A DNA stretch of 17,334 nt, from assembly GCA_035533275.1 (NCBI GenBank), contig DATLUD010000060.1:1-17334 (forward strand), given 5' to 3'. Numbering within the stretch: position 1 is the stretch's first letter; each line of letters begins with the position of its first letter. Shown piece by piece: positions 1,451 through 16,350 of the stretch. The translations under genes and the position numbers were made by a program. The notes under the pieces are model-generated. The model did not search any database, was not told the DNA's origin, and saw only the letters and a list, made by a program, of their open reading frames with translations. This DNA comes from Candidatus Dormiibacterota bacterium (GTDB taxonomy: Bacteria; Vulcanimicrobiota; Vulcanimicrobiia; Vulcanimicrobiales; SCRA01).

Positions 1451-2413
1451 ATGCCGGAACCCGGCGTGATGCTCGCGACGCTGATCGACGCACCGTTCGA
1501 CGACCCGGATTGGGTCTTTGAGACTAAGTGGGACGGCGTGCGGGCGATCTGCCGCGTCGACGAGCATCGGAGGCTCCGCTTGCTCTCGAGGACGGGGCAC
1601 GACCTCAGCGGCATCTTTCCCGAGTTGACCGCCATCGCTCGCGCGGTCGCGGGCGTGCCCGTCACCCTCGACGGCGAGGTGATCGCGCTCGACGCGCAGG
1701 GCCGCTCATCGTTCCAGGCGCTCCAACCGCGCCTCAACCGGCGGCGGCCGCCGCCGGAGGCCGACCGCGTGCCCGTGCGGTTCGCCGCGTTCGACATCCT
1801 GGAGCATCGCGGGCGCGATCTGAGGAGCTTGCCGCTCGAGGAGCGCATGCGCATCCTCCGCGCGGCGCTCCCGGAGATCCCCGGCGTCGCGACCATCTCG
1901 ACGGCGGTGCGGGAGGGGGGCAAGGCGGCGTTCGCCGCCGCGGCGCGGGCGGGACTCGAGGGCATCGTCGGAAAGCGGCTGGCGTCGCGCTACGCGCGCG
2001 GGCGCTCGCGCGAGTGGGTGAAGATCAAAGCGCGCCGGCAGCAGGAGTTCGTGGTCGGCGGATGGACCGAGCCGCGCGGCAGCCGGAGCCGCTTCGGCTC
2101 GCTGCTCCTCGGCTTCTACGAGGACGGCGTCCTCCGGTACGCCGGCTCCGTGGGCACGGGATTCGACGAGCGCGCGCTGGAGGACGTGAGCGCCCGTCTG
2201 CACACGATCGGGCGGGCGTCGTCACCGTTCGCGCAGCCGCCGTCGCGCCTGGCCTCCGCCGTCCACTGGGTCGAGCCGCGGCTCGTCGCTGAGGTGAAGT
2301 TCGCGGAGTGGACGCGCGGCGGACGCGTCCGCCAGCCGGTCTTTCAAGGCCTGCGCGACGACAAGCCGCCCCGCGAGGTGGTGCGCGAAGTGGCTGCATC
2401 CGCCGGCGGTTAG
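1451..2413 (+). CDS. ligD: ATP-dependent DNA ligase: a stand-alone LigD ligase domain of the non-homologous end-joining system.
   Basis: Nucleotidyltransferase motif I KxDG (ETKWDGVRAI), an MLATL N-terminal signature and an OB-fold C-terminal region. It is convergent with ku, with overlapping stop codons in TTAG at 2410-2413. The start could alternatively be the ATG at 1469. Confidence 0.85.
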   Translation: MPEPGVMLATLIDAPFDDPDWVFETKWDGVRAICRVDEHRRLRLLSRTGHDLSGIFPELTAIARAVAGVPVTLDGEVIALDAQGRSSFQALQPRLNRRRPPPEADRVPVRFAAFDILEHRGRDLRSLPLEERMRILRAALPEIPGVATISTAVREGGKAAFAAAARAGLEGIVGKRLASRYARGRSREWVKIKARRQQEFVVGGWTEPRGSRSRFGSLLLGFYEDGVLRYAGSVGTGFDERALEDVSARLHTIGRASSPFAQPPSRLASAVHWVEPRLVAEVKFAEWTRGGRVRQPVFQGLRDDKPPREVVREVAASAGG

Positions 2414-3237
2414 GCCACGTGCTTGCGGTGCGGCGACTTCTTGCGGCGCTTGCGCGTCTCGTCGAGACTGCGGCGGAGGACCTCGCGGAGATCGATGACG
2501 TTCGTCGCCTTCTTGCGGGCTTTGGCCTTTCCCAAGGCCGGACGCTCGCCGCGCGCCCGAGCCTCGATGAGGGCGGTGAGCTCCTCGCGGTAGGTATCCT
2601 TGAACGCGGCGGGATCGAACGAGGCGCTCATCGCCTCGACCAGCATCGCCGCCGACTTCATCTCCGGCGCGCTGGCCTTGATGCGGTCCGAGGGCGCGTC
2701 GATCTCCGCCTCGTCCACGATCTCATCGGCATAGTGCATCAGCTCCAGCACCAGCGTCGCGCCGCGCGGCTTCACGGCCGCCACGTGCTGGCGGGTCCGA
2801 ATCACCACCTGGGCGATGCCGACCTTGCGCGTCTTGATCAAGACGTCGCGCAGCAGCCCGTAGGCGTGCCGCCCGTTCTTCTCCGGTTCCAGGTAGTAGG
2901 GCTTGTCGAAGAGCACGGGGTCGATCTCGTCGACCTGAACGAACTGCACGATGTCGATGCTCTGCGTGGCCTCCACGTCCACGCGGGCGAAGTCCTCATC
3001 GCTCACCACCACGTACCGTTCCTTGGCCGCCTCGAATCCGCGAACCACGTGATCCCATTCGACCCGCTTGCCGCAGGAGTCGCAGAGGCGCACGTTGCTG
3101 ATGCGGCCGTGGTCCTCGTCGTGGAGAAAGTGAAAGCGCAGCTCGTTCGGTCGGATGGCCGCGACGAGTCTCACCGGGATGGAGACCAACCCGAAGTTCA
3201 CCGATCCGCTCCACAGCGCGTGAGCCATCTCAGCCAT
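2410..3237 (-). CDS. ku: Ku protein, the NHEJ DNA-end-binding protein (275 aa), with a lysine-rich C-terminal tail.
   Basis: The N-terminus MAEMAHALWSGSVNFGLVSIPVRL is the bacterial Ku signature. The true start is the internal ATG at 3237, not the upstream extension in the ORF track. This ATG overlaps the stop of the upstream PE-Pol gene within ATGGCTGA. Confidence 0.9.
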   Translation of the reverse strand: MAEMAHALWSGSVNFGLVSIPVRLVAAIRPNELRFHFLHDEDHGRISNVRLCDSCGKRVEWDHVVRGFEAAKERYVVVSDEDFARVDVEATQSIDIVQFVQVDEIDPVLFDKPYYLEPEKNGRHAYGLLRDVLIKTRKVGIAQVVIRTRQHVAAVKPRGATLVLELMHYADEIVDEAEIDAPSDRIKASAPEMKSAAMLVEAMSASFDPAAFKDTYREELTALIEARARGERPALGKAKARKKATNVIDLREVLRRSLDETRKRRKKSPHRKHVA

Positions 3238-4585
3238 CCTTCCACAGACGTTGGGCCTTGGCCAGCGCGGGGCCGAGGCGCTGGGGTGTGCCGTACGAGC
3301 CGCGCCACGGATCCGCCGCCTCGGCGGCGTTCGCCAGCGACCAGCGGTGCAGGGCCTTGGCCGGCTCCGCGACGCGGCTCCGCGTCCAGCCTTCGACGGC
3401 GTCCCAGTCCAGCGGCATCGAGACGGGGGCCCCGGGCTGCGCGCGCACGGAGAACGGCGCCGCCATCGTCTTGCCCCGCCCCACCTGCGCGGCGTCGAGA
3501 TAGACGGTGCCGGGCGGGCGCTTTGCCGGCGTGCGCGCCAGGGTGACGTCGTCGGGGCGGAGCGCCGCGACGCGCAGAGCCACCAGTTCCGCGAAGCGGC
3601 GCACATCGGCGTAGTCGTGCTCCTCGCGCAGACGCACCAGCACGTGCAGGCCGCGCGAGCCGGAGGTCTTCACGCGCGAACGCAAGCCCAACTCCGAGAG
3701 CGCGTCGCGAACCGCGACGGCCACGCGCGCGATGCGCCGCAGGGGCGTCCCCGGCGTCGGGTCGAGGTCGAAGAAGAGCAGGTCGGGGCGATCGGGGTCG
3801 GAGAGGCGCGACTGCCAGACGTGGAGGGTGATCGCGGCGAGGTTGGCCAGGTAGAGCAGCGTGCGGCGGTCGTTGCAGACCACGTAGGCGGAAGGCTCGC
3901 CGTGCGCCCCGGCCGGCATGTGCTTCTCGATGAACGATTTTCCGGCGATGCCGTCGGGGTAGCGCTCGAGCATCAGGGCGCGATCCCGCAGATAGGGCAG
4001 CATCGCCGGCGCGACGCGCTCGTAGTATGCCACCAGGTCGTGCTTGGTGAGCCCCTCGCCGGGCCAGAGCACTTTCTCGGGGTTGGTGAGCGCGGCGATC
4101 TGCTTCACCGTGCGGCCGGTGAGCACGGAGGCCGGATGGGCCGAGGCGCGCCAGCGCCGATCCGCCCCGGCATCGCGCTGCTTGATCAGCAGCCACGCCT
4201 CCTCACCGGCGCGCGGCCGCATCCGCACCAAAGCGAAGGCGCCGCGCAGCTTCTCGCCGTGGAGGCCGATCTCCAGCCGCCCCGCGCGCAGCGCGTGCGC
4301 CGCGGAGCCGCCGTCGAGCAGCTCGTAGGTGCCGGCGTCCCAGACGATCACCTCGCCCGCGCCGTATCTCCCTTCCTCGATGCGTCCCTCGAAGTCGTAG
4401 TAATCGAGCGGGTGGTCTTCCACGCGAATCGCCAGGCGGCGCACGCCCGGATCGAGCGATGGCCCCTTGGGGACCGCCCACGACGCCAGCGCGCCGCCGA
4501 TCTCAAGCCGGAAGTCGTAGTGCAGATGACGCGCGTGGTGGAGCTGGACCACAAAGCGCGGCTCGCGCGCCTTTTTCGTAGTCAT
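3230..4585 (-). CDS. LigD-type bifunctional 3'-phosphoesterase plus primase-polymerase (PE-Pol) protein with no ligase domain (451 aa).
   Basis: The N-terminal PE domain carries FVVQLHHARHLHYDFRLE. The Pol domain carries the DxD motif LLFFDLDPTPG, the SGSRGLHVLV motif and VYLD. It forms an operon with ku. Confidence 0.88.
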   Translation of the reverse strand: MTTKKAREPRFVVQLHHARHLHYDFRLEIGGALASWAVPKGPSLDPGVRRLAIRVEDHPLDYYDFEGRIEEGRYGAGEVIVWDAGTYELLDGGSAAHALRAGRLEIGLHGEKLRGAFALVRMRPRAGEEAWLLIKQRDAGADRRWRASAHPASVLTGRTVKQIAALTNPEKVLWPGEGLTKHDLVAYYERVAPAMLPYLRDRALMLERYPDGIAGKSFIEKHMPAGAHGEPSAYVVCNDRRTLLYLANLAAITLHVWQSRLSDPDRPDLLFFDLDPTPGTPLRRIARVAVAVRDALSELGLRSRVKTSGSRGLHVLVRLREEHDYADVRRFAELVALRVAALRPDDVTLARTPAKRPPGTVYLDAAQVGRGKTMAAPFSVRAQPGAPVSMPLDWDAVEGWTRSRVAEPAKALHRWSLANAAEAADPWRGSYGTPQRLGPALAKAQRLWKDG

Positions 4586-8200: not shown

Positions 8201-8247
8201 CCAAGGTGGCGCCTTGGCCATCTGGCTAACGTAGGGGGATGGCCAAG
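8201..8247 (+). promoter_or_regulatory. Overlapping inverted repeats (CCAAGG/CCTTGG and CTTGGCCAT/ATGGCCAAG). The second repeat encloses the ribosome-binding site and start codon of the CP ATP-grasp gene. It is a candidate translational-control hairpin or operator.
   Basis: Perfect 9-bp arms at 8213-8221 and 8239-8247, with the GGGGG SD sequence in the loop. A 6-bp IR at 8201-8206/8212-8217 offers an alternative pairing. Confidence 0.4.
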
Positions 8248-9704
8248 ACGCGAATCGGCGCCTCAGTGTTCGAGACGGAGCAGGAGTACGCGCTGGGGAC
8301 CCACTTCGACGAGTTCTTCGAGCGCGACGGCGTTGCTCGCGAGCACTACGCCGGGCTCGTCGAGGCGTTGGCGGAATATCCACGCGAGGAGGTCCTGGGC
8401 CGCGTCCAGTCCATCAACGCGGCGCTCCTCCAGCGGGGAGTGACCTTCACCGTCTACGCGGATGCCAGCGGCATCGAGCGCGTCTTCCCTTTCGATCTGA
8501 TCCCGCGCATCCTGCGCGCGGAGGAATGGAGCCGCATCGAGCGGGGCATCGCCCAGCGCGTGCAGGCGCTCAACGCCTTTCTCCACGACGTCTATCACGA
8601 TCAGCGCATCCTGCGCGAGAAGCGCGTCCCCGCGGACCTGGTCTACTCGTGCAAGCACTTCTGCCGGGAGATGGTCGGCGTGGACGTGCCCGGCGGCGTC
8701 TACGTGCACGTCTCGGGGATCGACCTCATCCGAGACGAGCGCGGCGAGTTCTTGGTCCTGGAAGACAACTGCCGGACGCCCTCGGGGATCTCGTACGTGC
8801 TCGAGAACCGGGACGTCCTGAAGCGGAACTTCCCCGACCTCTTCGCGGGATACGCGGTGCGTCCCGTGGACGACTATCCCCGCCGCCTGCTGGACGTCCT
8901 GCGCCACGCGGCGCTGCAGTGGCGGGAGAACCCGACCGTCGTGGTGCTGACGCCGGGCATCCACAACTCGGCCTACTTCGAGCATGCGATGCTCGCGCGG
9001 CGCATGGGAGCCGAGCTCGTGGAGGGGCGCGACCTGGTGGTGATCGACGACGTTGTCTACGTGAAGACGACGCGCGGCCTCCAGCGGGTGGACGTCATCT
9101 ACCGGCGCGTCGACGACGACTTTCTCGATCCTCTGTACTTCATCCCCGAGTCGGTGCTCGGCGTGACGGGGCTGCTCGATGCCTACCGGGCCGGCAACGT
9201 GGTGCTGGCCAACGCGATCGGCACGGGCGTCGCCGACGACAAGTCGGTCTATCGCTTCGTTCCGGAGATGATCCGCTTCTACTTGGACGAGGAGCCCGTC
9301 CTGGGCGTCGTGCCCACGTTCGATTGCACGGACCCGGCGCAGCGCCGCCACGTGGTGGGGCATCTCGCGGATCTGGTGGTGAAGAGCACGGCGGCCTCCG
9401 GCGCTACGGCATGCTGATGGGGCCCTACGCCGACGCGGCCGAGCGGGAGGAGTTCGCGCGCAAGATCGAGGCGAACCCGCGTGAGTTCATCGCTCAGCCC
9501 GTGATCTCGCTCTCGTCGCATCCCACGCTGGTCGACGGCGTGCTGGCCCCCAGGCGCGTCGATCTCCGCCCCTTCGCCCTCTACGGGCGTGAGGTGGACG
9601 TCCCACCGGCGGCCCTGACCCGCGTGGCCCTGCGCGAAGGCTCGCTCGTGGTCAACTCCTCGCAGGGGGGCGGCAGCAAAGACACCTGGGTGCTGCAGGG
9701 GTAG
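8239..9704 (+). pseudogene. Circularly permuted ATP-grasp type 2 protein (DUF404/DUF407 family; ~489 aa if intact). It is interrupted by a 1-nt deletion near 9403, which leaves two ORFs, 8239..9417 and 9411/9381..9704.
   Basis: The N-terminal part matches the family up to VVKSTAASG. The C-terminal part (YGMLMGPYADAAEREEF ... IAQPVISLS ... VDLRPFAL ... SLVVNSSQGGGSKDTW) is in the -1 frame. Changing tccggcgctacggc to tccggcggctacggc restores the conserved SGGYGML motif. Confidence 0.8.
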
Positions 9705-9712
9705 CGAAGCAT

Positions 9713-10654
9713 ATGCTGACGCGAGTCGCCGATTCGCTGTACTGGCTCGGGCGCAACATCGAGCGCGCCGAGACGATCGCGCGCATCCTGGACGTGAACT
9801 ACACCCGCGCCATGGATCTCTACTCCATGCGAGACGGGCGCGGGGAGCATCTGTGGCGCTCCGTGATGCGTTGCGCGGGGTTCGTGGCGGATCCCCAGCT
9901 GCCCGCAGGGGGACGCGTGGCCGCCGAGGTGATCGCCTTCTGCGGCCTCGACCACGAGAATCCGTACTCGCTGCGCTCGTCCATCCGCATCGCCAGGACC
10001 AACGCGCTGGGCATCCGGTCGGAGCTGACCAGCGAGGTCTGGGAGACCGTGAACGCGCTCTACCTCTACGCGGAGGAGCAGGAGGCGCGCAGCGTCCTGC
10101 GCAGCGGGCCCTCGAAGTTCCTGCGGCGCGTGCGGGACGCGGCGCATGCCTTCGCGGGGGTGACCTCCGAGACGCTGACCCACGGGGACCGTTGGTCGTA
10201 TCTGGTGGTGGGGCGCTTCTTCGAGCGCGCCTATATGACGGTGCGCATGCTCGACGCGGTGGACATCGAGCGCGAGCCGTGGCCCGAGGCCCAACGCCTT
10301 CTGGAGATGTGCTGCGCGGGGGAGCCGTTCACCCAGACCGTCGGCCATGCCTCCGAGCCGCGCGACGTGCTGGAGTTCCTGATCCTGCACCGCCAGTTCC
10401 CCCGCTCGCTGCACTTCTGCATGCGCCGGGTCGACGAGGCGATGCACGCGATCTCCGGCACGCCGCCCGACACGTTCGCGAACGACGCCGAGCGCCGCCT
10501 GGGGCGAGCGCGGGCCATGCTCGACTACGCCTCGATCGGCGACGTGCTCGGCGGCGGTCTGCCGGCGTTCGGAGCGGCCATGCGCGAGGAGTTCGAGGCG
10601 CTGCACGCCGCCATCTCTGCGAGCTATCAGCCCGGCATGGTGGGGGCCCCGTGA
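9713..10654 (+). CDS. Alpha-E domain protein (DUF403; 313 aa), the partner of the CP ATP-grasp.
   Basis: N-terminus MLTRVADSLYWLGRNIERAETIARILDVN. It starts 8 nt after the ATP-grasp stop. Confidence 0.85.
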   Translation: MLTRVADSLYWLGRNIERAETIARILDVNYTRAMDLYSMRDGRGEHLWRSVMRCAGFVADPQLPAGGRVAAEVIAFCGLDHENPYSLRSSIRIARTNALGIRSELTSEVWETVNALYLYAEEQEARSVLRSGPSKFLRRVRDAAHAFAGVTSETLTHGDRWSYLVVGRFFERAYMTVRMLDAVDIEREPWPEAQRLLEMCCAGEPFTQTVGHASEPRDVLEFLILHRQFPRSLHFCMRRVDEAMHAISGTPPDTFANDAERRLGRARAMLDYASIGDVLGGGLPAFGAAMREEFEALHAAISASYQPGMVGAP

Positions 10655-10656
10655 GC

Positions 10657-11517
10657 ATGGAATACACGATCGCTCACGAGACGTCGTACTGGTACCCGCA
10701 GCCCGTGGTCGAGAGCTACACGGTGGTCCACCTCCAGCCGCGCAACGACGCGACGCAGTACTGCACCCGTTTCGAGCTCAGCGTGAAGCCGCGCGCGGGC
10801 GTTCGGAGCACCGTGGACCGGTACGGCAACGGGGTGCAGCACTTCGAGATCCTCTCCAGCCATCAAGAGCTGACGGTGCGCGCCAGCTCGACCGTGGTGA
10901 GCCTGGCCCCGCGGACGGTCGGCGAGCCGAGCGAAGCGACCCTGGAGCTCCTGCGGAGCGATCCGGAGCTGGACCTGCTCTACGACTTCGTGCAGGAGAG
11001 CGCGTACGTGCAGTTTGCGCCGGAGGTCGCGGGGTTCGCGGCGGATCTGGCGCCGCGGGGCGACCGCATCGGGGCGTGGTGCGGCGAGGTGTCGCGGGCG
11101 ATCCACCGGCGCCTGCGCTACGACACCACCGCGACGAGCGTCCGCTCCACCGTCGTGGAGGCACTGCAAAGCCGGGCCGGAGTCTGTCAGGACTTCGCGC
11201 ACGTGATGATCGCCGTGCTGCGCTCCGCGGGCATTCCCGCGCGGTACGTGAGCGGATACGTCTTTCGCGGCGAGACGGCGCCGGGAATCTTGGGGGCGGA
11301 GGCCTCGCACGCGTGGTGCGAGGCCTATCTCCCTCCGTACGGCTGGGTCGGATTCGACCCGACCAACGACGTCTTGGTCAACGACCAGTTCGTGCGCGTG
11401 GCCATCGGGCGGGACTACCACGACGTCAGTCCGGTCCGTGGCGTCTACAAGGGCTCCGGGAGCAGCGAGATGTCCGTCAACGTCGCCATGGATGCCCTGC
11501 AGTTTGCCCAACAGTAG
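10657..11517 (+). CDS. Transglutaminase-like cysteine protease/transglutaminase (Bact_transglu_N plus TGase core; 286 aa).
   Basis: Cys-His-Asp core (GVCQDFAHVMIAVLRSAGIPARYVSGY ... ASHAWCEAY ... GFDPTN). The ATG is 3 nt after the alpha-E stop (GTGAGCATG). Confidence 0.85.
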   Translation: MEYTIAHETSYWYPQPVVESYTVVHLQPRNDATQYCTRFELSVKPRAGVRSTVDRYGNGVQHFEILSSHQELTVRASSTVVSLAPRTVGEPSEATLELLRSDPELDLLYDFVQESAYVQFAPEVAGFAADLAPRGDRIGAWCGEVSRAIHRRLRYDTTATSVRSTVVEALQSRAGVCQDFAHVMIAVLRSAGIPARYVSGYVFRGETAPGILGAEASHAWCEAYLPPYGWVGFDPTNDVLVNDQFVRVAIGRDYHDVSPVRGVYKGSGSSEMSVNVAMDALQFAQQ

Positions 11518-11776: not shown

Positions 11777-12817
11777 CTAGGCTCCCCGTCCCGCGAGCGC
11801 GGCCATGCTCTCGTACGCGGCCACGATCTTGGCGGGATTGGGCAGGGCGAACTCCTCCATCGGGCGCGAGTAGGGAATGGGGATGTCGGGGTAGCCCACG
11901 CGCTTGGGCGTGGCCTTGAGCATCGAGACGTCGTGCTCGACCACGGTCGCCATGATCTCGCCCGTCATCCCGTAGCTTTGATAGTCCTCGTCCACCACGA
12001 TGAGGCGCCCGGTCTTGCGCACGGAGGCGATCACGTGCTTGCGGTCCAAGGGCACCAGCGAGCGCAGATCGATCACCTCCGCGGAGACGCCTCGATCGGC
12101 CAGCAGGTCGGCGGCCTTGAGGGCATGATGGACGCCGGAGGTGATGCCGACGATCGTGACGTCGGTACCCTCGCGCACGGTGGCCGCCTTGCCGATGGGC
12201 ACCGTGTAGGCTTCCTCGGGCACCCCGACGATCGACGCCGGCTCCGTGCCGAGCCACCCCATGCCCTGCAAGCCCTTGTGGAAGAGATAGATGACGGGGT
12301 TGTCGTCGCGGATGGCCGCCGTCATCAAGCCCTTGGCGTCGTACGCGTTCGACGGCGCGACGACTTTCATTCCGGGCAAGTGGGCGAACGTGCCGTGGAG
12401 GCACTGGGAGTGCTGTCCCGCGTCGCTGTAGCCGCCGCCGGTGGCCGTCATCAAGACCATCGGAACCCGCACGCTCCCGCCGGAGAAGTACGTGTTCTTG
12501 GCCATGAAGTTGTAGATCGCGTCCATGCAGACCCCAAAGAAATCGACGAACATCAGCTCGACGACGGGGCGCATGCCGTCGGCCGCGGCCCCGGCCGCGG
12601 CGCTGATGAACGCTGTCTCGGAGATCGGCGTATCGCGCACCCGCTCGGCGCCGAACTCCTCGTACAGGCCGCGCGTGTTGCCGAAGACGCCGCCGAGCTT
12701 GGCGATGTCCTCGCCCATCACGAAGACGCGCGGGTCGGTGCGCATCTCTTGCGCGATCGCCTCTGCCATGGCCCGCGCGATGGTCAGCTTGCGGGCGCTG
12801 GGTGTGCCGTTGCTCAT
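11777..12817 (-). CDS. Thiamine-diphosphate-dependent 2-oxoacid / acetoin dehydrogenase E1 component, beta subunit (AcoB/PdhB-like; 346 aa).
   Basis: Transketolase-like pyrimidine-binding and C-terminal domains (ISETAFISAAAGAAADGMRPVVELMFVDF ...). The ATG at 12817 is preceded by GAGGAG at a 6-nt spacing. Confidence 0.88.
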   Translation of the reverse strand: MSNGTPSARKLTIARAMAEAIAQEMRTDPRVFVMGEDIAKLGGVFGNTRGLYEEFGAERVRDTPISETAFISAAAGAAADGMRPVVELMFVDFFGVCMDAIYNFMAKNTYFSGGSVRVPMVLMTATGGGYSDAGQHSQCLHGTFAHLPGMKVVAPSNAYDAKGLMTAAIRDDNPVIYLFHKGLQGMGWLGTEPASIVGVPEEAYTVPIGKAATVREGTDVTIVGITSGVHHALKAADLLADRGVSAEVIDLRSLVPLDRKHVIASVRKTGRLIVVDEDYQSYGMTGEIMATVVEHDVSMLKATPKRVGYPDIPIPYSRPMEEFALPNPAKIVAAYESMAALAGRGA

Positions 12818-12837
12818 GGTATTCTCCTCACTCGCGC

Positions 12838-13824
12838 CTAGACGAAGACCTTGTCCAGAGCCGCCGCGGGCTCGGGGTAGGGACTGCGCCGCGCGAACGC
12901 GATCGCGTCGTCCACGCGCTTGCGCGCGCGGGTGACGATCTCCGCATCCTCTTGCGGCGTCAGGGCGTCGACGGTGGTCAAGTACCCGCGGTAGGCCGGG
13001 ATGGGATCCCTGGCCGCGAGCATCTCGAGCTCCTCCTTGGGACGATACTGCTGCGCGTCCCCCATGAAGTGGCCGGAGAGGCGGAGCGTCTCGATCTCGA
13101 TGAGCGAGGGGCCTTCGCCGTTGCGGGCGCGCTCGATGGCTTGCCCGGCGACTTTGAAGACCTGGAGCACGTCGTTGTTGGCCACGTAGTGTCCCGGGAT
13201 GCCGTAGCCGATGGCGCGGACGTCGTTGTGCTCCACGGGCGTCGAGGCGCTCTTGGGAACGGAGATCGCCCACGAGTTGTCCTCGATCACGAAGATCACC
13301 GGAAGCTTCCAGATGGCCGCCAAGTTGAGCGCCTCGTGGAAGGCGCCTTGGTTGGCCGCCCCTTCTCCAAGGTACGCCACCGCCACGCCGTCCTTGCTCT
13401 GGAGCTTGCGCGAGAGGGCGGCGCCCACCGCCGGCCCCACGCTCTGGCCGATGATGCCCGAGCACGAGAAGTTGACGGCGGGATCGAAGAGGTGCATGTG
13501 GCCGCCGCGGCCGCCGCTCAGCCCGTCGCCCTTGCCGAAGATCTCGGCCGCCATCTTGTCGAGATCGACGCCTTTGGCGATGGCGACGTGGTGGGCGCGG
13601 TGCGTCGACGTCACCACGTCGGTCGGCTTCAAGTGGATGCAGACGCCCGCGGCGCACGGCTCTTGCCCCTTGGAGAGATGCATCTCGCCGGGTATCGGCC
13701 CGCTTGCCATGTTGAAGACCGGTGTCTTGCCTTCGAGATAGATCGCCTCGATGGTGTCCTCGAAGTAGCGCGAGGCCACCATCCGTTCGTACATCCAGAG
13801 CTTCTGCTCTCGCGTGGGTAACAT
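12838..13824 (-). CDS. Thiamine-diphosphate-dependent dehydrogenase E1 component, alpha subunit (AcoA/PdhA-like; 328 aa).
   Basis: TPP-binding motif (YLGEGAANQGAFHEALNLAAIWKLPVIFVIEDNSWAIS) and the phosphorylation-loop region. GGAGG lies 5 nt before the ATG at 13824. Confidence 0.88.
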   Translation of the reverse strand: MLPTREQKLWMYERMVASRYFEDTIEAIYLEGKTPVFNMASGPIPGEMHLSKGQEPCAAGVCIHLKPTDVVTSTHRAHHVAIAKGVDLDKMAAEIFGKGDGLSGGRGGHMHLFDPAVNFSCSGIIGQSVGPAVGAALSRKLQSKDGVAVAYLGEGAANQGAFHEALNLAAIWKLPVIFVIEDNSWAISVPKSASTPVEHNDVRAIGYGIPGHYVANNDVLQVFKVAGQAIERARNGEGPSLIEIETLRLSGHFMGDAQQYRPKEELEMLAARDPIPAYRGYLTTVDALTPQEDAEIVTRARKRVDDAIAFARRSPYPEPAAALDKVFV

Positions 13825-13896: not shown

Positions 13897-14817
13897 GTGA
13901 TCAGACTACAGGCCTATGCGCGCGTTGCCGCGAAGCATCCACCAGGTTGCTTTGACGCTCGCGGAGGGCGTGTGGAGACGGGGCTTCAGACCGCACTCGC
14001 TCAACACTATGCGCTGGTGCAAACGCAGCTGCTCGAGGCCGTCGGCGGACGCCCCGTGGCAGGCTTGCGAGCCCCGCACGGACTGCCGGCTGGCTTCGTC
14101 CAGCACGATCTCGGCGCCGGGGCACCCATACCGACGTTCGAGCACGTCGGCGAGGACGGCCTCTCGATCCGCGTCGCGCTGCTCGAGTCCCCGGAGCATC
14201 TCGCCTTCATGGTCCATCTGATGACGGTGGAGATGCGGCCGTGGTGCTCCGGGGCCGAGCACGCCGAGGCGGGCTTGGGCGACGTGCTCGCCTTCGAGCT
14301 GGAGGCCGTTGAGCCGGCAGACGCGGCGCTGATGCGGCGCGGAGCTCTGCTGCTGCGCGACGCGCTGGCCGCGGTGGGTCTTGGATCCAACGTGCAGCTG
14401 GCCAAGCCGCCGGGGCTCGACGTGCTGGTGCCGCTCGACCGCGGCTACCCGGTCTCGCAGCTGCGCGCGGCGGAACGCTTCCTCGCCGGAGAGCTCACGC
14501 GGCGCCACCCGGACGTCTTCAGCATCGCCTACTATCGCTCGCAACGCGCCGGGCGCGTCCACCTCGGCACCGGTGCCAAGGGCGTCTCGCGCACCTACCG
14601 CGCGCCGTACTCGCTGCTCGCGGTGCCGGGGCTCTCCGTGGCCCTGCCGATCACCTGGCGCGAGCTCGAGCGCGACGCCAACGCCCCCGTGGCGGCACGT
14701 GACCTGCCGGCGTTCCTGCGCGCGCACCCGCGCGACCCCGACGCGGGCGTTTCGCCGCAGAATCCGCTGGAGCTGCTGGTGCGCGCCGAGGAGGCGCGCC
14801 CGCGTGATGGAGAGTGA
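13897..14817 (+). CDS. Divergent, probably catalytically inactive paralog of the LigD primase-polymerase (PolDom) domain (306 aa).
   Basis: Collinear similarity to the Pol domain of the PE-Pol protein in this window. Every catalytic position is substituted: FFDLDP becomes AFELEA, SGSRGLHV becomes AKPPGLDV, and VYLD becomes VHLG. The start is a GTG at 13897, or alternatively 13972. Confidence 0.7.
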   Translation: MIRLQAYARVAAKHPPGCFDARGGRVETGLQTALAQHYALVQTQLLEAVGGRPVAGLRAPHGLPAGFVQHDLGAGAPIPTFEHVGEDGLSIRVALLESPEHLAFMVHLMTVEMRPWCSGAEHAEAGLGDVLAFELEAVEPADAALMRRGALLLRDALAAVGLGSNVQLAKPPGLDVLVPLDRGYPVSQLRAAERFLAGELTRRHPDVFSIAYYRSQRAGRVHLGTGAKGVSRTYRAPYSLLAVPGLSVALPITWRELERDANAPVAARDLPAFLRAHPRDPDAGVSPQNPLELLVRAEEARPRDGE

Positions 14818-14828
14818 CGACGCGGCGC

Positions 14829-15170
14829 CTACTCTTTGCCGATTTTCTGATTCTCGTTGTTGAGAAGAAAGATCTTGTCGGCGTGGCGAACGCCGAGGCC
14901 CTTCTGATCATAGAAGATGCCGACGTAGCGCCCTGGCTTGATGGCCTTCATTTGGTACGTCGTCTTGCCGTCGGCGGAAAAAATCTGATCGAACTTTGGC
15001 ACGAGAACGAAACTCAATGTCTGGTGCGTCGTCGGGCTATAAACCTTTATGTTATCCATCGAGACATGTTTCGTGATACCGTAGAACGTCGAAGCGGCAA
15101 GCGCGGCGTTCGGCGCCAGCATGGCGATGGCGGCTGTGAGCGAAATCAGTATCATGCTCATGTGTTTCAT
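14829..15170 (-). CDS. Small secreted protein of unknown function (113 aa) with a Sec signal peptide and AxA cleavage site. Its GC content (~52%) is atypical for the region.
   Basis: The N-terminus MKHMSMILISLTAAIAMLAPNAALAAS has a signal-peptide pattern. GGAGG lies 7 nt before the ATG at 15170. The codon usage is AT-rich, unlike its neighbours. Confidence 0.7.
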   Translation of the reverse strand: MKHMSMILISLTAAIAMLAPNAALAASTFYGITKHVSMDNIKVYSPTTHQTLSFVLVPKFDQIFSADGKTTYQMKAIKPGRYVGIFYDQKGLGVRHADKIFLLNNENQKIGKE

Positions 15171-15525
15171 GCGTTTTCCTCCAGGCCGATCGGGACGGGC
15201 TCGGTCGCCATCGTCGCATCACGGATCACCATCGCAGCGGACCGTTCTCTGTGCACCAGGGTTACCGAGCTGCGCCATGCGGCGCTTGCTCCGGCGGCGT
15301 CGGCAAATCAATTGTAGCTGGCGTAGCTCGCGTCTGCCAATCGTTGAAACGAGGGATGCGGTGCCGGCGTTATCCCCAGTTTCCACGATACCTGAACCGT
15401 GGCGGCTGTGGTACGCTGACGCCGGTGCCGCCGCGCGGCGCAGCGCGACGGCGGCGGATACCGCGAAACCTTGGCCGCAATGCCAAAACGGTTCCGACGC
15501 GCAAGATCTCAAAAGAGGTAGCAAG

Positions 15526-16350
15526 GTGCTGATCGGATTCTTCGGTCCATTCGTCGTGGTCGTCGTGCTCCTGATCGTGGTGAGCGCGTCCGTCAAAGTG
15601 TTGCGCGAATACGAGCGCGGCGTCGTCTTTCAGATGGGCCGCTTCTCGCGCGTCAAGGGGCCGGGCCTCATCCTGCTCGTCCCCTTCGTCCAGCAAATCG
15701 TTCGAATCGACTTGCGGACGATCGTCATGGAAGTTCCGAGTCAAGATCTGATCTCTCGCGACAACGTCTCGGTCAAAGTGGACGCCGTTCTTTACTTCCA
15801 TGTCGTGGATGCGGCCAAGGCCGTCATCCAAGTGGAGCAATTCGTCGCGGCGACAAACTTGCTCGCGCAGACTACGCTACGCTCGGTTTTGGGTCAGCAT
15901 GACCTCGATGAGATGCTGGCAGAGCGCACACGGCTCAACACGGACATTCAGGACATCCTCGATACGCGAACCAAAGCATGGGGCATCGAGGTGAGCGCGG
16001 TCGAGATTCGTGACGTCCAGCTGACGGAGAACATGGTCAAGGCGATCGCCAAGCAAGCAGAAGCCGAGCGCGATCGGCGCGCAAAGGTGATCCATGCCGA
16101 AGCCGAGTTCCAGGCATCGCAGGTGCTCGTCAACGCTGCGACGATTCTTGGATCGATCCCGGCGGCGATGCAGTTGCGCTATCTGCAGACCCTGACCGAG
16201 GTGGGAGGAGAGCACAATTCAACGATCGTGTTCCCCATGCCGCTCGACATCGTCAAGCCATTCTTGGATATCCTCGAGAGAGCGGCAGCCCCGGCCCCCG
16301 CCAGCGCGATGGTCACGAACGGGCTCAAGCTCACGGTGCCGCCGGCGTAA
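15526..16350 (+). CDS. SPFH/band-7 (stomatin-like, slipin) membrane protein (274 aa).
   Basis: N-terminal TM segment (LIGFFGPFVVVVVLLIVV) and an SPFH domain (VLREYERGVVFQMGRF ... IRDVQLTENMVKAIAKQAEAERDRRAKVI). The GTG start is preceded by AAGAGG. Confidence 0.85.
   Translation: MLIGFFGPFVVVVVLLIVVSASVKVLREYERGVVFQMGRFSRVKGPGLILLVPFVQQIVRIDLRTIVMEVPSQDLISRDNVSVKVDAVLYFHVVDAAKAVIQVEQFVAATNLLAQTTLRSVLGQHDLDEMLAERTRLNTDIQDILDTRTKAWGIEVSAVEIRDVQLTENMVKAIAKQAEAERDRRAKVIHAEAEFQASQVLVNAATILGSIPAAMQLRYLQTLTEVGGEHNSTIVFPMPLDIVKPFLDILERAAAPAPASAMVTNGLKLTVPPA

Follow-up and report, generated by a model that had tools for sequence, protein, structure and literature searches.

The stretch of DNA analysed here (the window) is 17,334 nucleotides long, belongs to contig DATLUD010000060.1 and has a GC content of about 69%. 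It carries at 13972..14817, on the forward strand, a gene whose product is a genuine LigD-type primase-polymerase domain (PolDom, AEP superfamily), related to the polymerases of non-homologous end joining (NHEJ) in bacteria and encoded on its own. We refer to it as the stand-alone PolDom; a canonical PolDom in the same window, the resident PolDom, is part of the PE-Pol fusion at 3230..4585. The residues expected to bind metal and nucleoside triphosphate (NTP) are replaced almost throughout in the stand-alone PolDom. Judged from its sequence, our somewhat favoured reading is that of a lineage-restricted, fast-evolving NHEJ PolDom paralogue turned pseudo-enzyme, most likely a non-catalytic binding module. 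A relic without present function is the main rival explanation, and a rewired acidic site is a remote one.

The homologues counted below come from a search of 1.84 billion cluster representatives, which stand for about 15 billion proteins; the 159 nearest representatives were aligned. The roles of residues in the Mycobacterium tuberculosis (Mtb) protein were taken from PMC8656161 (active site) and PMC3898472 (5'-phosphate pocket and DNA contacts). Residue numbers of the stand-alone PolDom follow the 306-residue open reading frame (ORF) that starts at 13897; subtracting 25 gives the numbering of the real 281-aa protein. The features of the gene are as follows.

13897..13971, + strand: N-terminal extension in the initial annotation, probably an untranslated leader; holds the Shine-Dalgarno sequence GGAGGG
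13972..14817, + strand: gene of the stand-alone PolDom paralogue, 281 aa, GTG start, TGA stop, PF21686
13978..13992, + strand: TGLQT (canonical TGxTK); Mtb K26, the second lysine of the 5'-phosphate pocket, is Thr or Gln
14068..14100, + strand: DNA wedge segment RAPHGLPAGFV; Mtb R53, P55 and F63 kept as R58, P60 and F67
14236..14238, + strand: Arg114, replacing the His that reads the ribose 2'-OH (Mtb H111; His in 142/159 homologues)
14290..14307, + strand: motif I, AFELEA instead of (F/V)FDLDP; metal ligands D137 and D139 of Mtb become E134 and E136, Pro becomes Ala
14401..14421, + strand: motif II, AKPPGLD instead of (S/T)G(S/G)(K/R)GLH; phosphate-binding Ser, Gly, Lys and His replaced
14530..14556, + strand: loop 2, YYRSQRAGR; Mtb K217 and R220 correspond to R214 and R217, basic residues retained
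14557..14568, + strand: motif III, VHLG; Mtb D227 becomes Gly224 (Asp in 158/159 homologues)
14608..14619, + strand: YSLL instead of YS(L/V)R; triphosphate-binding Mtb R244 becomes Leu241 (Arg in 159/159 homologues)

Gene call and family membership

The 306-codon ORF 13897..14817 is present in the window, and the plus-strand frame is backed by its codon-position GC. The initial annotation had described this ORF as intact, with a plausible start. It does lack internal stops and frameshifts; the start at 13897 appears to be wrong, and the true start is probably the in-frame GTG at 13972, located 75 nt further 3'. This start is preferred because the Shine-Dalgarno sequence GGAGGG (13963-13968) lies 4 nt 5' of it, because GC at third codon positions (GC3) is only 0.54 in the first 25 codons (13897-13971) vs 0.88 in the remainder of the ORF, and because the gene callers of the Joint Genome Institute (JGI), NCBI (HVA38242.1) and ENA agree on the same 281-aa product. 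From 13972 to 14817 the GC contents of the three codon positions (GC1/GC2/GC3) are 0.82/0.49/0.88, resembling those of the adjacent genes. Scans for promoter-like and terminator-like sites found none for this gene, and Rfam, tRNA and repeat scans gave nothing relevant to it.

As the initial annotation had expected of a Pfam search, the product matches the LigD_Prim-Pol family, PF21686, with an E-value of 3.9e-31 and 109 bits (gathering cut-off 27.4); ORF residues 33-277 are aligned to profile positions 4-250 of 254. BLASTP against the resident PE-Pol gave 26% identity (E 4e-14), and among solved NHEJ polymerases phmmer matched 5dmu from Methanocella (E 6e-17), 2iru from M. tuberculosis, 5op0 (Prim-PolC) from M. 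smegmatis and 2fao from Pseudomonas. The phmmer alignment extends over about 230 residues with few short gaps and zero frameshifts. The alignment to the PolDom along the whole length, as claimed initially, thus holds for nearly the entire profile and fails at the N-terminus, where it lacks the ~25 residues with which canonical PolDoms begin and is short relative to its family. Family-signature residues are kept at 32 of 44 positions, including GRP, RxPxG, the Phe63 equivalent, RAGR of loop 2, APYS and PxxW. TIGR02778 (ligD_pol), the NCBIfam equivalog-domain model of the functional NHEJ polymerase, scores the stand-alone PolDom at 88.2 bits, below its equivalog cut-off of 214.7, whereas the resident PE-Pol passes with 232.7.

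An AlphaFold2 model built from a 63-sequence MAFFT alignment has a mean confidence (pLDDT) of 92.8 and a pTM of 0.90; since it is shaped by an alignment of canonical homologues, it would indicate compatibility with the fold rather than prove that the protein folds. Foldseek placed PolDom structures at all top positions for this model (E 2e-19 to 1e-16), with TM-scores of 0.78-0.86 to 5dmu, 2iru, 2r9l, 3pky, 5op0 and 2fao.

Long spurious ORFs are common in a window of 69% GC, and the frame could in principle have arisen by chance from the high GC content or through faulty assembly. We consider the probability of this negligible in view of the near full-length Pfam match, the correct codon-position GC pattern and the recovery of a near-identical sequence in four independent assemblies (JGI, ENA, NCBI), whose copies differ by at most one amino acid (Leu/Val). 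One of the source assemblies is a metagenome-assembled genome (MAG) labelled Candidatus Dormibacteraeota.

Catalytic and DNA-contacting residues

The catalytic columns were located in five alignments, made by BLASTP against the resident PolDom, by phmmer against 5dmu, 2iru and 5op0/6sa0, by phmmer with the 159 homologues, and by MAFFT. They were identical across alignments, with E for D twice, A-K for S/T-G, D for H and G for D, and neither an alternative acidic residue nor an alternative register for these columns was found in the BLASTP, phmmer or MAFFT alignments. The motifs quoted in the initial annotation (AFELEA, AKPPGLDV, VHLG, LRDALAAVGL and YSLLAVPGLSVALPITW) all occur in the ORF translation. 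Its three substitutions, DxD to ExE, SGxxGxH to AKPPGLD and motif III Asp to Gly, are borne out in every alignment, including that with the Mycobacterium PolDom, and the losses go further than it had noted.

In the Mtb enzyme D137 and D139 of motif I coordinate both metals, D227 of motif III is a ligand of metal A, and S172 and H178 of motif II bind the NTP phosphates (PMC8656161). The two Asp residues of motif I are found in 156/159 and 151/159 homologues, and the inspected exceptions at the second are artefacts of alignment register. In motif II, S172 is replaced by A169, the following Gly by Lys170, Lys by Pro172 and H178 by D175, leaving only the central Gly173; in these columns S/T is found in 159/159, G in 158/159 and H in 154/159 homologues. 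There is no acidic residue within five positions of Gly224, so no shift of register rescues motif III. Leu241 stands in place of R244, the triphosphate-binding Arg of the Mtb protein, and Arg114 in place of H111, which reads the ribose 2'-OH (both PMC8656161). Further replacements concern F64, which stacks on the templating base (V68), Q230 of the primer 3'-OH network (A227) and N231, a near-invariant column of motif III (K228), while the ribose-2'-OH residue T236 is kept as T233. The claim that this is a stand-alone PolDom paralogue in which essentially all metal- and NTP-binding residues have been replaced is thus upheld by Pfam, by phmmer and by the homologue alignment.

These substitutions destroy the two-metal site, through the change of DxD to ExE and of the motif III Asp to Gly, and the triphosphate pocket, where Ala, Lys, Pro, Asp, Leu and Lys stand for Ser, Gly, Lys, His, Arg and Asn, and both NTP binding and nucleotidyl transfer would be lost. 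No polymerase or primase chemistry is expected, because Ala, Pro, Asp and Leu have taken the places of Ser, Lys, His and Arg in the triphosphate pocket and the protein lacks the ligand of metal A. The protein very probably has no polymerase activity.

One could instead suppose that Glu134 and Glu136, together with the new Asp175, form a rewired metal site serving an altered polymerase reaction or some other chemistry. Both positions of motif I have indeed remained acidic, a Glu in the second position is compatible with catalysis in the DxE motif of human PrimPol (PMC10778844), and the carboxylate gained at the His position of motif II adjoins the site of the triphosphate and metal B. Yet every triphosphate ligand is gone (Ser172, Lys175, His178 and Arg244 to Ala, Pro, Asp and Leu), the equivalents of Asn231, Gln230 and His111 are lost too, and Gly occupies the position of Asp227, the ligand of metal A, without an acidic residue in its vicinity. 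The pocket has turned from positive to neutral or negative and would repel an NTP, and no homologue shares the pattern in a way that would indicate a selected new site. We regard such a rewired enzyme as highly improbable.

The residues that hold DNA have fared unevenly. The 5'-phosphate pocket of the Mtb PolDom is formed by N13, K16 and K26, and a single point mutation in it abolishes DNA binding (PMC3898472). The stand-alone PolDom begins two residues before TGLQT, so that counterparts of N13 and K16 are missing; in the 150 nt upstream, none of the frames showed a remnant of the LTNxDKVLWP strand of canonical PolDoms. Canonical docking on a recessed 5'-phosphate end is unlikely because the pocket is absent and one pocket mutation abolishes it in Mtb; the decoy that binds DNA ends, put forward in the initial annotation, is accordingly improbable in its canonical form. 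In the Mtb protein R53, P55, F63, K217, R220 and K235 also contact DNA (PMC3898472). Besides the wedge and loop 2 residues listed above, K235 is conservatively replaced by Arg (R232), and the column of R217, which is kept, is Arg in 154/159 homologues. The wedge (R58, P60, F67) and the loop 2 basic residues (R214, R217, R232) could still hold a DNA strand. An argument for lost DNA binding from overall charge was considered and rejected, as the pI and net charge are not outliers.

Relatives, genomic setting and the case for selection

For 44 columns conserved at 75% or more among the 159 homologues, and with the active-site set defined from PMC8656161, six of the seven active-site columns are replaced as against six of the 37 others (one-sided Fisher p = 8e-4), a result that is stable at other conservation thresholds; of the six losses outside the active-site set, half (P137, G170, N228) lie within motifs I-III. 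The pattern of replacement is non-random and, as far as sequence can tell, fits a scaffold under coding constraint and not neutral decay. A long evolution as a selected protein without catalysis is suggested, because the losses cluster on the active site while the fold residues, the frame and the codon bias are intact. We give a slight preference to the view that a non-catalytic function has been under selection, at least in the past.

Searches for orthologues, a cluster look-up among them, returned only the protein itself and near-identical copies. A word-indexed search of 5.8 billion clusters gave the protein itself and then matches of at most 33% identity, all with canonical motifs. In an exhaustive phmmer search of the 1.84 billion representatives, the sole match below 1e-30 was again the protein itself; the best other match had an E-value of 3.7e-25 (28% identity), and none exceeded 34% identity. 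JGI metagenome DNA, scanned as well, yielded a single 99% copy together with two loci of 27-28% identity. The conservation of the ExE and Gly substitutions among orthologues, which the initial annotation had proposed to survey, finds no support there, as the next best match after the near-identical copies is 34% identical. The substitution pattern is shared by none of the 159 nearest homologues. In the protein and metagenome data searched, the stand-alone PolDom is a singleton confined to one population, and there is no evidence for a conserved class.

Candidates for further inactive PolDoms in the homologue set were rejected, since the motif I changes in P0083, P0095, P0112, P0124 and P0007 proved to be alignment-register artefacts. 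The only other homologue of the 159 with a genuine loss from the catalytic triad is P0156, an otherwise canonical PolDom-bearing NCBI protein of 484 aa, in which the motif III Asp is replaced by Gly (RLYIGGERN) and Tyr occupies the position of His111. A recent local duplication of the resident PolDom was likewise rejected as the origin of the gene, as the resident protein ranks only 157 of 159 by score. The median identity of the stand-alone PolDom to the homologues is 30% vs 37% typical within the family.

The other genes of the window that bear on the argument are these.

1451..2413, + strand: stand-alone ATP-dependent ligase domain (LigDom) with KWDG adenylation motif; PF01068 and PF04679
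2410..3237, - strand: Ku; PF02735, E 3.8e-42; start candidates 3237 and 3228; start overlaps the PE-Pol stop
3230..4585, - strand: PE-Pol fusion of canonical type, this genome's active NHEJ polymerase; PF13298, and PF21686 with E 1.5e-76
9713..10654: Alpha-E gene, following an ATP-grasp gene
about 10660..11517: transglutaminase gene, following Alpha-E; with the ATP-grasp gene it makes up the usual three-gene set
11777..13824, - strand: E1 alpha/beta dehydrogenase pair; a small biotin/lipoyl-domain gene is also called on a population copy (L001)
14829..15170, - strand: 113-aa ORF without Pfam, PADLOC or PHROG match, converging on the stand-alone PolDom gene
15121..16350, + strand: SPFH/Band-7 gene, GC3 only 0.73; its long start overlaps the 113-aa ORF; the JGI version has 274 aa

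The window contains a complete split NHEJ set of the 'non-conventional' kind, in which the ligase gene converges on Ku with a 4-nt overlap of their stops and PE-Pol is devoid of a ligase; PE-Pol passes TIGR02777 (187.8 > 144) in addition to TIGR02778 (232.7 > 214.7). The stand-alone PolDom lies 9.3 kb from this LigDom-Ku-PE-Pol cluster. A distance of less than 10 kb is a suggestive link, as by a rough estimate the probability of such a placement by chance in a genome of a few Mb would be below 1%. The gene looks monocistronic because it is divergent from E1-alpha and convergent with the 113-aa ORF, and it has no PADLOC or PHROG match that would indicate a defence or phage context. Synteny was compared at 80 loci surrounding the nearest E1-alpha homologues (75% identity at best, from MAGs of Alphaproteobacteria); none had a PolDom or the SPFH gene nearby, and no syntenic relative emerged.

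Some observations on the neighbouring genes are recorded in their own right. E1 alpha and E1 beta are 75% and 87% identical to relatives from Alphaproteobacteria MAGs (L002-L081) on a contig assigned to Dormibacteraeota, which hints at acquisition of the E1 operon by horizontal transfer. The region of the 113-aa ORF and the SPFH gene, 14829..15170 (-) and 15121..16350 (+), has a GC content of about 0.60 vs 0.69 in the window. The circularly permuted ATP-grasp gene at 8239..9704 (+) shows an apparent 1-nt frameshift near 9390-9410: ORF 8239..9417 corresponds to positions 1-301 of PF14403, and another frame of 9300..9701 to positions 300-374 (E 9.6e-21). The split reflects an error in the assembly or else a true pseudogene.

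Several findings weigh against a selected pseudo-enzyme acting in NHEJ. In the protein clusters and in JGI metagenome DNA only near-identical copies from one population are found, so neither present-day purifying selection, as the ratio of non-synonymous to synonymous substitution rates (dN/dS), nor conservation is measurable. In a neighbour-joining tree of 150 sequences the protein's terminal branch is longer than any other (0.85 vs a median of 0.38), which fits relaxed constraint, and the N-terminal truncation together with this branch may be read in the same way. Population copy L001 differs from the window by 5 single-nucleotide polymorphisms (SNPs) in 6.7 kb, with zero in the gene, and L082 by 10 SNPs over 5.6 kb, of which a single one, L245V, lies in the gene; this sole SNP in the gene is non-synonymous, while the four SNPs in E1 alpha, E1 beta and SPFH are all synonymous, although these numbers are tiny. 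The adjacent genes, namely the divergent E1 dehydrogenase operon and downstream the 113-aa ORF and the SPFH gene, are not DNA-repair genes. Unrelated to repair, too, are those between the NHEJ cluster and the stand-alone PolDom (an MFS transporter, an enolase-superfamily gene, an isocitrate/isopropylmalate-type dehydrogenase, the ATP-grasp/Alpha-E/transglutaminase trio and the E1 alpha/beta operon). The NCBI label of the protein is merely 'hypothetical protein', and the structural model carries the caveat given above.

Many of these findings equally speak for the main rival, by which a once active or non-catalytic PolDom is now functionless and drifting, an incipient pseudogene that has as yet acquired neither stop nor frameshift. 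The lack of orthologues, the long branch, the truncation without an upstream trace of the missing strand and the non-synonymous SNP count in its favour, as do the 12 mismatches at the 44 conserved columns, where the homologues have a median of 4 and a maximum of 12. Stops are moreover rare at 69% GC, where even the antisense strand has a 273-aa ORF, and another gene in the window, that of the circularly permuted ATP-grasp protein, looks frameshifted. Neutral decay that replaced six of seven active-site residues would, however, not spare 31 of the 37 others (p = 8e-4), nor would about 230 residues then still align with few short gaps and without a frameshift, or the GC3 of 0.88 and the ribosome-binding site be intact. 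At most, such decay describes a very recent state of the gene and not the origin of its sequence. We hold a functionless relic to be a possible explanation, though not the favoured one. Of the initial description as a conserved scaffold rather than a decaying pseudogene, the second part retains support from the non-random losses and the coding signals, and the word 'conserved' has none in the absence of orthologues.

Under the pseudo-enzyme reading, two modes of action can be envisaged. The protein may still occupy a DNA strand through its wedge and loop 2, or, alternatively, it may serve as a module for protein-protein contacts with Ku, LigDom and PE-Pol of the split NHEJ set encoded 9 kb away. 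The latter idea would be in keeping with what is known of the POL domain, namely that it mediates the interaction of Ku with LigD (PMC7719229; bioRxiv 2025.12.12.693941). The Ku-contact residues of the Mtb protein, D162, V194 and R198 (bioRxiv 2025.12.12.693941), vary across the family, are not conserved even in the resident PolDom and are uninformative here. That a selected function would lie specifically in NHEJ seems doubtful on present evidence. Rather speculative, and slightly less probable still, is the fuller proposal of a non-enzymatic NHEJ accessory in an organism with a split LigD, acting for instance as a Ku/ligase adaptor, or as a regulator that would form heterodimers with the active PolDom or take hold of 3' strands by means of the wedge and loop 2.

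Comparison with known polymerase domains

The initial annotation regarded inactive PolDom paralogues as an undescribed class. In the literature consulted we found no PolDom or AEP pseudo-enzyme with a substituted active site, and the nearest precedent, AtuLigD1 of Agrobacterium tumefaciens, owes its inactivity to a C-terminal truncation. The stand-alone PolDom would then be the first pseudo-enzyme with a substituted active site found in the bacterial NHEJ toolkit. If it keeps the fold without the metal, nucleotide and 5'-phosphate sites, it would be a ready-made tool for separating the scaffold role of POL from its polymerase role. Should the accessory reading be true, it would represent a natural separation-of-function variant and imply that the structural role of POL is selectable on its own. 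The weight of the case is limited by its source, a single uncultured population of a Dormibacteraeota soil bacterium, without orthologues of the protein.

With the LigD PolDom or Prim-PolD (PF21686, TIGR02778; 2IRU, 3PKY, 4MKY, 2FAO, 5DMU) the stand-alone PolDom shares the fold and the core length; it differs from canonical LigD PolDoms in that motifs I-III and the Arg244 equivalent are replaced and the strand of the 5'-phosphate pocket is missing. In survey data on bacterial NHEJ, which do not cover the integrity of active sites, more than one POL copy is noted for 37% of the NHEJ-positive genomes (PMC7719229).

Outside the AEP superfamily there is a likeness to the non-canonical prokaryotic PolX proteins, which lack polymerase activity (PMC9226535), form conserved clades and have an alternative exonuclease activity. 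As in some PolX lineages, a repair-polymerase fold would here survive without polymerase chemistry, although the PolX fold is unrelated to that of AEP and, unlike the PolX proteins, the stand-alone PolDom forms no clade.

The mycobacterial PolD1, PolD2 and Prim-PolC (stand-alone proteins of Actinobacteria) are likewise single-domain extra copies that are encoded apart from the ligase beside a main polymerase. The C-terminal helix of the stand-alone PolDom aligns with helix alpha-8 of Prim-PolC, which is followed there by Loop 3 and whose gene sits in the LigC operon (PMC5663958). Unlike Prim-PolC, the stand-alone PolDom ends right after this helix, without Loop 3, and has no ligase neighbour. 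The three mycobacterial proteins are active polymerases with intact motifs, whereas the protein described here is without such an active site.

The POL domain of AtuLigD1 naturally has no polymerase activity and coexists with an active paralogue (PMC1920237). Its inactivity stems from a deletion at the C-terminus; it retains most catalytic residues and is still fused to ligase and PE domains (PMC1920237). The stand-alone PolDom, by contrast, has a complete C-terminus, substituted catalytic residues and a short N-terminus, and is encoded alone.

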